A DNA stretch of 64,000 nucleotides from Naegleria gruberi (lineage: Eukaryota), in NCBI GenBank assembly GCA_000004985.1, contig GG738921.1. One strand, 5' to 3'. The notes under the pieces were generated by a model. That model ran no database searches. It saw only the letters and a list, made by a program, of their open reading frames with translations, and had not been told where the DNA came from. A program made the position numbers and the translations under genes. Of the stretch, positions 9,050 to 56,412 are shown piece after piece. How positions within the stretch are numbered: the stretch's first letter is position 1; every line of letters begins with the position of its first letter.

Positions 9050-9179
9050 TTTGTTTTTTAGTTTTGATTTGTTTTGGAGAATGTAAATCTCGTTTGATTA
9101 ACTATGATTTTTACATACAATAAGATTAGNNNNNNNNNNNNNNNNNNNNNNNNNNNNNNNNNNNNNNNNNNNNNNNNNN

Positions 9180-13740: not shown

Positions 13741-14260
13741 TCTAGACTAGATAATGATCAACAACCTTGACCTAAATCCAATCACGGAAAAACTCAATGA
13801 GAATGGGCTATCCAAATCCAGATTTGGCCAAATGATTCGAAATGCATTATCTTATCCCTGCTATCCAGAGTTATATTCTACCCACTACCAAAACTAATTT
13901 CCCATTCTCCTACGCAACCAATAGACCTTAATAAATGTTAAAAACAATTTTGCACCTCCTCTTCCTTGTTGTACATTGGAAAGTATTCGAATATATTTTA
14001 CAAAATATCAATAGTACATTCTATTCGCTGTTTCGGCTGTTTCGTAATCTCTCATTTATTAAAAAAGGTGCGTCTTTCAATAATGGAGTTATTAATTTCA
14101 ACTAAATCAACCAGACGAAACAATAAGAAAGCAATTATGAATAATACCCAATGAAAGTCCAAGGCAGGATTTTAGATGGTACGCACTTCATTGGGAGTTT
14201 TCAAAAAACTATTAAAAGATCTTTGTGCATTCTCCAGATTTCCAATATTCAAAAAAAAGA

Positions 14261-16462
14261 ATGAAATTGAAAAGAAACAAGAAGGAAAGTGATTCTAATG
14301 AAATCAAGGACGAAAGGGAGCCAAATATTAGGTTCGCCATGTGGTTTATTGTGAGAATAATGGGATGGGAAATGATTTGGATTGTATTGGGAATGATTGG
14401 ATGGGCTGCGCTTGGTTCCATTCCGGTAAGTATTCGAATGTTGAATTTTATTCGAAAGCTTAACACCTATTATATAGCATGGTAAGTTTGCTAAATGTGA
14501 ATTGCAATTTTTCTAATTACAATGAAAATAGTATTCAATATTTTAATGGGTGAATTAATTAAGGCTGTTTTCTCATCGACAACTGCCAAAACAAGTTATA
14601 CGAATGAAATTAATAATTTAGCCATGTGGATGGCCATTATTGCAGTTATTGCAGCTATTGTCATGTGGATGGGTTTTTCAATGACAAGTTATGCATTTGT
14701 AAGTTTCTTTCGAATAAGCTCAATTCTAAACTTTCTAAATTAGGAAAGAATTGGTGTAAGATTCAAGACAGCTTATATTGAATCCCTTTTAAAACAAGAA
14801 ACTGGTTACTTTGATATGAAAAGAACTGGTGAACTCATGTCTTGGATGACCGAATCAATGGAACAAATTCAAGACAGTTTCAGTAACAAACTCGGAAGAA
14901 TCGTCCAGTTTAGTATCCAAATCATTTTGGGTGTCATCTTGGCCCTTGTCTTTGCCTGGAAAATGGCCATCGCCATGGTTGCCTTCTCTCCATTAATTGC
15001 AGTCTTAATGTTTGCCTCAGGATTCGCCTCACAACTCGTCACTAGAAGAACCATGAAAATTTCCAATGAAGGATCTGCAATGGCCAACGAAGTTATTGGA
15101 GCTATTCGTACTGTTCGTTCTATGGATGCTGAACAAAAGGAAATTGACAGATATAAGAGACAAATGAGATCAGGAAATGCCATGTATGTCATTAAGGGAA
15201 TTGTTTTGGGATCTCCAATTGGTTTTTCTGAAATTTGCATTTGGGGAATTTTAGCATTTGGAATGTAAGTTGAATTTTAATAGAATTTGAGAAATTTTAA
15301 CATGTATTAGGTGGTGGGGAGGTAAATTATTACAAGATGGTGAAATTGAATTCCAAAACATGTTCAGAGTTTTCACATTGCTCTTAATGTCAGTTTTGGG
15401 TAGCTCACAAATTATGAGTTTCCTTCCAGATTTGACACGTGCCATTGCTGCCAGTAAGAATCTCTTAAAGGTCATTCACAGAAAACCAGCCATGAGATTT
15501 GGAGGTGGAATTACCCCAGAAAAAATTGAAGGAAAGATTGAATTTAAGGATGTTTGTTTTTCATATCCAACTCGTCCAAATATTCAGGTTTTGAAGAACT
15601 TTACTTTCAATATCAAACCTGGTCAATCAATTGCTTTAGTTGGTAGTTCAGGATCTGGTAAATCAACCATTGTTAGTTTATTGGAAAGATTTTATGAACC
15701 ATCGAGCGGTAATATTATTTTGGATGGAAATGAATTGGCTGAAATTGATCCACATTGGCTTCGTAGTCATATTGGATTGGTTGGACAAGAACCTGTATTG
15801 GTAAGTTTTTTTATGAACTTTCGAATATTTATATTGTGAAATAGTTTGGTGGTACTATTAAGGAAAATATTTGTTATGCTATTAGAAAGACTTCTATTGA
15901 TCCGTTCCCAAGTGATGAAGAAATTATCAATGCTGCTAAAGCTGCCAACGCTCACGATTTCATTTCCTCTCTTCCAGATGGTTACAATACCAAATTAGGA
16001 GAACGTGGTGTTTCCTTATCCGGTGGCCAAAAACAACGTATAGCCATAGCCAGAGCTGTCATCCAAAATCCTGAAATTCTACTTTTGGACGAAGCCACCT
16101 CTGCCCTGGACACAAACTCTGAAGCTGTAGTCCAAGATGCCCTCAACAAACTCATGAAAGGAAGAACAACCATTGTCATTGCCCACAGATTGTCCACCAT
16201 TGTCGATTCAGACATGATTCTCGTTTTCCATAAGGGTGAATTGAAAGAAGTTGGTACTCATGATCAATTGATGGATTTAGAAGGAGGTCTCTATGCAGAA
16301 TTGGCCAGAAAACAAATGATGAGAAAGGAAGAAAGTTTGGATAAAATACCATCAGTTCCATCCGCCATTGATATGTATAAGGAAGATGAGATTGAGATGC
16401 AACCATTAGAAAAGATTCCAAGTACTGATTCGGCTGATTCGAATGAAGATTCTATGGTTTAA
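14261..16462 (+). CDS. ABCB-family half transporter (TMD-NBD), 5-6 exons: 14261..14425, candidate micro-exon 14478..14481, 14532..14698, 14744..15264, 15311..15800, 15845..16462.
   Basis: Exons are joined by GTAAGT..AG introns of 45-52 bp. The TMD has the ABC-membrane pattern. The NBD carries Walker A (GSSGSGKST), the signature (LSGGQKQR) and Walker B ([12 protein letters not shown]). The reading frame is only maintained if CATG (14478-14481) is spliced in. Confidence 0.85.
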
Positions 16463-16617
16463 TTTCGTAATTTATTAGAAATGTTGAAAGTTTTGTTATG
16501 AACCAATTTTGTAAAGTGTTGTGCTTAGTATTTGAAAATATTAACACAAGAGGGTAAAGAACTTATTNNNNNNNNNNNNNNNNNNNNNNNNNNNNNNNNN
16601 NNNNNNNNNNNNNNNNN

Positions 16618-33275: not shown

Positions 33276-34063
33276 NNNNNNNNNNNNNNNNNNNNNNNNN
33301 NNNNNNNNNNNNNNNNNNNNNNNNNNNNNNNNNNNNNNNNNNNNNNNNNNNNNNNNNNNNNNNNNNNNNNNNNNNNNNNNNNNNNNNNNNNNNNNNNNNN
33401 NNNNNNNNNNNNNNNNNNNNNNNNNNNNNNNNNNNNNNNNNNNNNNNNNNNNNNNNNNNNNNNNNNNNNNNNNNNNNNNNNNNNNNNNNNNNNNNNNNNN
33501 NNNNNNNNNNNNNNNNNNNNNNNNNNNNNNNNNNNNNNNNNNNNNNNNNNNNNNNNNNNNNNNNNNNNNNNNNNNNNNNNNNNNNNNNNNNNNNNNNNNN
33601 NNNNNNNNNNNNNNNNNNNNNNNNNNNNNNNNNNNNNNNNNNNNNNNNNNNNNNNNNNNNNNNNNNNNNNNNNNNNNNNNNNNNNNNNNNNNNNNNNNNN
33701 NNNNNNNNNNNNNNNNNNNNNNNNNNNNNNNNNNNNNNNNNNNNNNNNNNNNNNNNNNNNNNNNNNNNNNNNNNNNNNNNNNNNNNNNNNNNNNNNNNNN
33801 NNNNNNNNNNNNNNNNNNNNNNNNNNNNNNNNNNNNNNNNNNNNNNNNNNNNNNNNNNNNNNNNNNNNNNNNNNNNNNNNNNNNNNNNNNNNNNNNNNNN
33901 NNNNNNNNNNNNNNNNNNNNNNNNNNNNNNNNNNNNNNNNNNNNNNNNNNNNNNNNNNNNNNNNNNNNNNNNNNNNNNNNNNNNNNNNNNNNNNNNNNNN
34001 NNNNNNNNNNNNNNNNNNNNNNNNNNNNNNNNNNNNNNNNNNNNNNNNNNNNNNNNNNNNNNN
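33276..34063. other. Assembly gap (788 N). Shorter 50-N gaps lie at 9130-9179, 16568-16617 and 56270-56319.
   Basis: Runs of n in the sequence. Each gap truncates an adjacent gene model. Confidence 1.
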
Positions 34064-56078: not shown

Positions 56079-56412
56079 TAGATCCAAAATATTTTACATC
56101 ATGATCAATTTGTTGATGATTTAATTATTTAATTAGATCATTTATAATATTTAAATATTCATATGATGATGATGATGATTGATGAGATGGAATAATAAAT
56201 TTTGATCAATTCCAAGATCATTATATTAATATATTAATAATATTAAAATTACACACAAATGATCAAAGANNNNNNNNNNNNNNNNNNNNNNNNNNNNNNN
56301 NNNNNNNNNNNNNNNNNNNCCATCATCTCCATTTTCATTCTTTTCATCCTCCAATCCATCACCAAACTCCTTTTTATAAAATAAAAGGAATAATTTAAAT
56401 TATAATAATTGT

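Follow-up and report, generated by a model that had tools for sequence, protein, structure and literature searches.

Is a stretch of only four nucleotides, CATG, an exon in its own right in an ABC transporter gene of Naegleria gruberi? The question arises in NAEGRDRAFT_82015, a gene with six exons and five introns on the + strand of the window, by which we mean the whole stretch of 64,000 nucleotides of N. gruberi NEG-M that we analysed (contig GG738921.1). Between the end of exon 1 and the start of the next large exon lie 106 nt, and CATG sits in the middle of them. An earlier note on this DNA had proposed that these four nucleotides are a coding micro-exon. The coordinates and the sequence it gave are exact (exon 1 ends at 14425, CATG occupies 14478-14481, the next exon starts at 14532). 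Our analysis leads to the same reading: CATG is very probably a genuine 4-nt internal coding exon, and we infer that it is included in the mRNA. Among 22 models of the interval the one with this exon comes out best, it restores a histidine found in the orthologues, and its product equals the deposited protein.

The transporter gene and its reading frame

All five introns of the gene start with GTAAGT and end with TAG (Table 1). With CATG included, the coding sequence is 1965 nt long and encodes a protein of 654 amino acids. In this product PF00664 (ABC_membrane) matches residues 45-313 (E = 8.8e-42) and PF00005 (ABC_tran) matches residues 380-535 (E = 2.6e-34); the Walker A motif GSSGSGKST, the signature LSGGQKQR and the Walker B motif are all legible in the translation. 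Since one ABC_membrane domain is followed by one ABC_tran domain, the protein is an ABCB-type half-transporter. It has the same domain plan as other ABCB (MDR/TAP-type) half-transporters and there is nothing unusual about it. As for the residues that the micro-exon encodes, they belong to the first transmembrane stretch and are unexceptional among the orthologues. The earlier note had put them in TM1-TM2; they fall in the opening part of the ABC_membrane match. We found no paralogues of the transporter within the window.

Table 1. Parts of NAEGRDRAFT_82015 in window coordinates, with splice-site scores for the 106-nt interval.
Feature	Position	Strand	Length (nt)	Splice sites (score)	Remarks
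Exon 1	14261-14425	+	165		ATG to CCG; 55 codons, phase 0
Intron 1	14426-14477	+	52	GTAAGT (+9.4 bits)...TATATAG (+6.2 bits)	branch-point-like CTTAAC at 14459-14464
Rival donor	14430-14435	+		GTATTC (-8.4 bits)	with acceptor 14531 keeps the frame without CATG (P-V-I-F)
Probable micro-exon CATG	14478-14481	+	4		His56 codon and first base of Val57
Intron 2	14482-14531	+	50	GTAAGT (+12.4 bits)...AAAATAG (+6.5 bits)	branch-point-like CTAAT at 14513-14517
Exon 3	14532-14698	+	167		starts TA TTC AAT, completing Val57
Intron 3	14699-14743	+	45	GTAAGT...AATTAG	
Exon 4	14744-15264	+	521		product identical to P0036
Intron 4	15265-15310	+	46	GTAAGT...TAG	position common to Willaertia magna
Exon 5	15311-15800	+	490		
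Intron 5	15801-15844	+	44	GTAAGT...TAG	position common to the relative on contig L004 (P0005 reads through into the intron there)
Exon 6	15845-16462	+			includes the TAA stop; last part of the ATP-binding domain

The reading frame shows why CATG matters. If exon 1 is joined directly to the exon at 14532, the junction reads CCG TAT TCA ATA TTT TAA, with a stop (TAA) after four codons. If CATG is included, the junction reads CCG CAT GTA TTC (P-H-V-F) and the protein continues as ...GSIPHVFNIL.... That skipping CATG leads to a stop had already been seen and is correct. The accompanying claim that any extension of a neighbouring exon breaks the frame does not hold, because exon 1 can be extended by 4 nt, up to a GT at 14430. 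Nor is it right that the frame can only be kept with CATG, since this GT keeps it too, though as a very weak donor. It is the second GT of GTAAGTATTC, and exon 1 would then end at 14429 (CCG GTA A). CATG is needed in any model with the consensus donor at 14426, and the frame-keeping alternative is this GTATTC donor. As the model with the donor at 14430 is in frame, a decision between the two models is needed.

The two models, and simple skipping, predict different strings at the junctions. With CATG included these are GGTTCCATTCCGCATGTATTCAATATT, CCGCATGTATTC and GGTTCCATTCCGCATGTATTCAATATTTTAATGG; with the donor at 14430 they are GGTTCCATTCCGGTAATATTCAATATT, CCGGTAATATTC and GGTTCCATTCCGGTAATATTCAATATTTTAATGG; with CATG skipped (14425 joined to 14532) they are GGTTCCATTCCGTATTCAATATT and GGTTCCATTCCGTATTCAATATTTTAATGG.

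Splice models for the 106-nt interval

We enumerated all GT-AG models with one or two introns across the interval, as well as single-intron GC-AG and AT-AC models. There are 22 GT-AG models that are in frame and free of stops. The micro-exon model tops all 22, both in alignment to the Willaertia orthologue (281 versus 271 for the next) and in splice-site score (34.5 bits versus 24.8 for the next). Two other short exons are in frame, one of 19 nt (14478-14496) and one of 10 nt (14487-14496), but each comes with a 35-nt intron, a poor donor and 3-5 residues beyond those of the orthologues. In the close relative described below a 1-nt deletion at 14493 would shift the frame of both, which removes these alternatives. 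For the single-intron AT-AC and GC-AG models homology is worse in every case.

Both introns that flank CATG are complete: they begin with a perfect GTAAGT donor, end with a TAG acceptor and contain, about 15 nt from the end, a branch-like YTAAY element. Intron 2 opens at 14482 with GTAAGTTTGC. The scores in Table 1 come from a donor and acceptor position matrix built on 11 other introns of the window, and for donors the matrix is somewhat circular because few introns went into it and some of these were located through a GTAAGT search. An unbiased scan of GT...AG pairs that bridge two long open reading frames likewise puts GTAAGT first, the lone evident exception being one clear GTATGT intron. 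The acceptor and the donor on either side of CATG, which the earlier note called strong, score +6.2 bits (14477) and +12.4 bits (14482).

The lengths of the introns point in the same direction. Thirteen introns of the window are well defined; they measure 44-89 nt, with a median of 50, and the 106-nt interval therefore corresponds to about two normal introns. A published table gives a mean intron length of 203 bp for N. gruberi (PMC8296547); hence longer introns do exist in this species.

Could the arrangement have arisen by chance? GTAAGT is depleted in the window, with 26 occurrences on both strands compared to a mean of about 50 for permuted hexamers. The bare pattern AG-N4-GTAAGT is unremarkable (2 in the window versus 1.0 expected). 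For the full pattern GTAAGT-N35-65-AG-N4-GTAAGT-N35-65-AG the window has a single match, and none of 100 dinucleotide shuffles has any.

These results bear directly on the main rival, a single 102-nt intron that runs from the donor GTATTC at 14430 to the acceptor at 14531 and contains the internal TAG-CATG-GTAAGT by chance. The protein would then read ...GSIP-V-I-FNIL.... This model is in frame, free of stops and gives a protein of equal length, and on homology it comes second of the 22. Yet its donor scores -8.4 bits while a perfect GTAAGT (+9.4 bits) overlaps it 4 nt upstream, and its intron would be longer than each of the 13 defined introns of the window. It also needs a chance acceptor and a chance perfect donor that happen to split the interval into 52 and 50 nt, an arrangement the shuffles never produced. 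Together with the evidence from orthologues and from the deposited protein discussed below, this makes the 102-nt intron very unlikely.

The micro-exon product is letter for letter the deposited protein EFC37156.1 (XP_002669900.1, UniProt D2W1B3) of locus NAEGRDRAFT_82015, described as a "predicted protein". We looked up the exact sequences of six splice-model products, and only that of the micro-exon model is in the protein collection searched; the other five, including that of the 102-nt intron, which differs from the deposited protein, are absent from it. Among the enumerated in-frame models only the micro-exon model yields ...GSIPHVFNIL.... Because the deposited protein is identical and no other in-frame model gives this string, the reference annotation must hold the 4-nt exon. 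The remark in the earlier note that exons of this size are usually missed by gene finders is therefore inapplicable here. The deposited model may, however, stem from a homology-guided predictor, in which case the match is agreement and not independent proof of transcription. Three intron-free open reading frames of the window are also letter for letter N. gruberi NEG-M proteins, XP_002669897.1 among them. A look-up of the annotated gene table around the neighbouring N. gruberi gene returned no record. A literature search with the accessions of the gene found no paper, and neither did one for work treating micro-exons in Naegleria.

While examining the introns we also noted the palindrome TTCGAA, usually as [AT]TTCGAA[AT]. 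There are 48 sites across the window, about 3 times as many as for permuted hexamers. Six of them lie inside introns (14433, 14451, 14709, 15820, 58070 and 62879). The 13 defined introns together measure 700 nt, 5 of them carry the palindrome, and at the rate of the whole window 0.53 occurrences would be expected in place of the 6 (Poisson P about 2e-5). The palindrome is also found between genes, for example at 13986, 44727 and 44786. A role as an intronic or regulatory motif in N. gruberi is conceivable.

Orthologues, a close relative and the origin of the introns

We compared the site with three orthologues whose proteins, where they align, share 60-64 % identity with that of N. gruberi. 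Willaertia magna reads CCT CAT ATA TTT AAT, metagenome contig L003 reads CCA CAC ATT TTC AAC and metagenome contig L058 reads CCC CAC ATA TTT AAC, in each case P-H-I-F encoded by uninterrupted DNA. His56 is thus invariant in all three (CAT, CAC and CAC), and Val57 aligns with isoleucine in all three. The micro-exon model (CCG CAT GTA TTC, P-H-V-F) differs from the orthologues by one transition, a conservative change from isoleucine to valine. The 102-nt intron (CCG GTA ATA TTC, P-V-I-F) does keep the isoleucine of the three orthologues at position 57. But it would require CAY to become GTA, three base changes that lose the histidine shared by all three, and the 4 nt between the chance acceptor and donor would have to spell the ancestral histidine codon by coincidence. 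At this level of comparison the orthologues favour the micro-exon model over its rival.

A more distant group of paralogues reads P-[VI]-[VLA]-[LF] at the site. The P-V-I-F of the 102-nt intron, which fits the pattern P-V-[IVL], resembles this group, and homology alone is for this reason not decisive. The two-residue insertion relative to orthologues for which the earlier note had proposed to look does not exist; the orthologues have two residues at the same place. A scan of metagenomes with the N. gruberi protein alone gave no match. With an alignment as query the scan returned only paralogue-level relatives of at most 40 % identity, all intronless through the site; they are informative on spacing and do not constitute a test of the micro-exon.

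Two observations on relatives of the gene were made along the way. The Willaertia model ABK040_000065 (P0004, 557 aa; JBEGDK010000064.1, L001:3001-6229) appears to be mis-spliced: ...WAFERIG is followed directly by ...APIGAQEF, after which the model runs into an unrelated downstream region. The Willaertia DNA itself holds an intact orthologue, consisting of a 290-codon open reading frame, one intron and a 329-codon open reading frame. In addition, contig L004 (ENA ERZ929261, from the same sample as L057, the contig discussed next) carries a 70 %-identical relative of the transporter, P0005, which has an intron at the position of intron 5 in the window and an extra intron inside the equivalent of exon 4. 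This contig starts downstream of the micro-exon region. Its source is either a second Naegleria-like organism or a paralogue.

A much closer comparison is provided by L057, an independent ENA metagenome contig that is 98.3 % identical to the window over 8.3 kb. There are 12 differences in the coding sequence, 11 of them synonymous and 1 non-synonymous, which shows purifying selection in the micro-exon frame. One synonymous difference falls in exon 1 and none in exon 3. In the 106-nt interval the contig has three substitutions and a 1-nt deletion, all within intron bodies. In intron 1 the change 14461 T>A leaves CTAAAC, and in intron 2, which carries the deletion at 14493, the substitutions at 14512 and 14518 flank an intact CTAAT. 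CATG and all five splice signals, including both donors and both acceptors, are unchanged, in a comparison that is too close to NEG-M to show selective conservation of the 13-nt core.

One could also argue that the whole puzzle is an artefact, caused by an indel in the assembly, by a pseudogene, or by a true N-terminus that lies elsewhere (at the ATG at 14522 or at the methionine of MGEL). After all, the window is a draft in which runs of N occur, for example 100 nt downstream of the gene, and a prokaryote-style gene caller began the protein P0001 of a relative at MGEL. However, in the independent contig L057 the exon sequence is the same, which refutes the sequencing indel that the earlier note had left as a way out. 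The ratio of 11 synonymous to 1 non-synonymous substitutions likewise speaks against an artefact. The N-terminus encoded by exon 1 is conserved, being homologous to that of the Willaertia and L058 orthologues with the common residues EPNIRF, GWExIW and G..P, and the Pfam ABC_membrane match begins at residue 45 in exon 1 and crosses the junction. We regard an artefact as extremely unlikely.

As to the assembly, runs of N mark gaps at 9130-9179, 16568-16617, 33276-34063 and 56270-56319. L057 spans the second of these, about 100 nt downstream of the ABC gene, with 191 nt in place of 50 N. A dip in GC content at 32-34 kb is merely the run of 788 N.

Where, then, do the two introns come from? Introns 1, 2 and 3 are absent from Willaertia, whose first 290 codons form one open reading frame, and the only intron in common is intron 4. 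Judged from these sequences, the micro-exon arrangement is lineage-specific, as the same codons are uninterrupted in the three orthologues. Each of the four genes has its own arrangement in codons 54-62. Willaertia (L001:3150-3200) has no intron there. L003 (L003:1-60) has one between codons 54 and 55. N. gruberi (window 14420-14535) has one between codons 55 and 56 and another after the first base of codon 57 (phase 1). L058 (L058:505-600) has one between codons 61 and 62, with the donor GTTAGT and not GTAAGT. Four arrangements in nine codons among four orthologues suggest recent intron gain or sliding at this place, as a lead drawn from four sequences, three of which come from poorly characterised sources. 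A tandem duplication is not supported as the origin, because the similarity of introns 1 and 2 to each other does not exceed that of shuffled sequence (z = 0.7). A more specific idea, which we offer with considerable doubt, is that in the Naegleria clade helix 1 could form a hotspot where introns were recently gained or slid. The 4-nt exon would then be a by-product of two independent insertions 4 nt apart, which would force strictly ordered splicing.

Probable stepwise splicing and comparison with known micro-exons

How could an exon of four nucleotides be spliced? Introns in N. gruberi measure about 45-60 nt, and their splice sites are probably paired across each intron. Since just 4 nt separate the acceptor of intron 1 from the donor of intron 2, it is not plausible that both are occupied at once. 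Splicing of the two introns is probably sequential, in either order, and after the first removal CATG would be the end or the start of an exon of normal size. For plant micro-exons, too, it is thought impossible that the spliceosomes of both flanking introns are present at once, and ordered removal is expected (PMC8831610). Once spliced in, CATG would contribute to transmembrane helix 1 the codon of the conserved His56 and, for Val57, the first base; skipping it would give the early stop described above.

This stepwise removal raises another alternative. The site could serve recursive (ratchet) splicing, as the earlier note had mentioned, or it could be a poison junction under regulation, at which the micro-exon is frequently skipped. 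Acceptor and donor are almost juxtaposed, as in the recursive sites of Drosophila and vertebrates, where GTAAGT follows the acceptor almost at once. The stop four codons on is what a poison junction would produce, and the probable removal of both introns in two steps, which we consider mechanistically likely, also resembles recursive splicing. Recursive sites, however, leave zero nucleotides in the mRNA and are known from very long introns. Here 4 nt lie between the AG and the GT; in the micro-exon model they are needed for the frame, stay in the mRNA and encode a conserved histidine, and the whole interval measures 106 nt. Purifying selection in the frame that includes the micro-exon also speaks against this alternative. 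Hence, a recursive site or a poison junction is highly improbable.

A micro-exon, by comparison, is of a known kind. Coding micro-exons of 1-15 nt occur in plants and animals, among them the 1-nt exons of APC11 and VPS55, and adjacent exons of 5 nt and 12 nt have been validated in rice (PMC8831610). The CATG exon resembles these micro-exons in being an internal exon of a few nucleotides that, with the consensus donor at 14426, is needed for the frame, in having strong GTRAGT donors, and in being "subsumed in a larger exon" in relatives without the flanking introns (PMC8831610). It differs from them in its host, a heterolobosean amoeba with few introns (1.7 exons per gene; PMC8296547), and in being flanked by minimal introns of 50-52 nt. 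It is also lineage-specific and not anciently conserved, and it is already annotated and not missed.

What does the finding mean? Micro-exons of 1-15 nt are a known kind of exon and the CATG exon is already in the public model, which makes it a curiosity and not a discovery. It leaves the current understanding of splicing and of ABC transporters unchanged. Nevertheless, it illustrates cleanly an ultra-short exon in a protist whose introns are few and minimal. In such a protist introns must be recognised singly, and simultaneous occupation of splice sites 4 nt apart is hardly possible. The different intron positions in close relatives add a small but usable data point on intron gain or sliding in Heterolobosea. 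For N. gruberi itself, this awkward spot is very probably correct in the public model of the transporter, and the junction strings that go with it are now given exactly.
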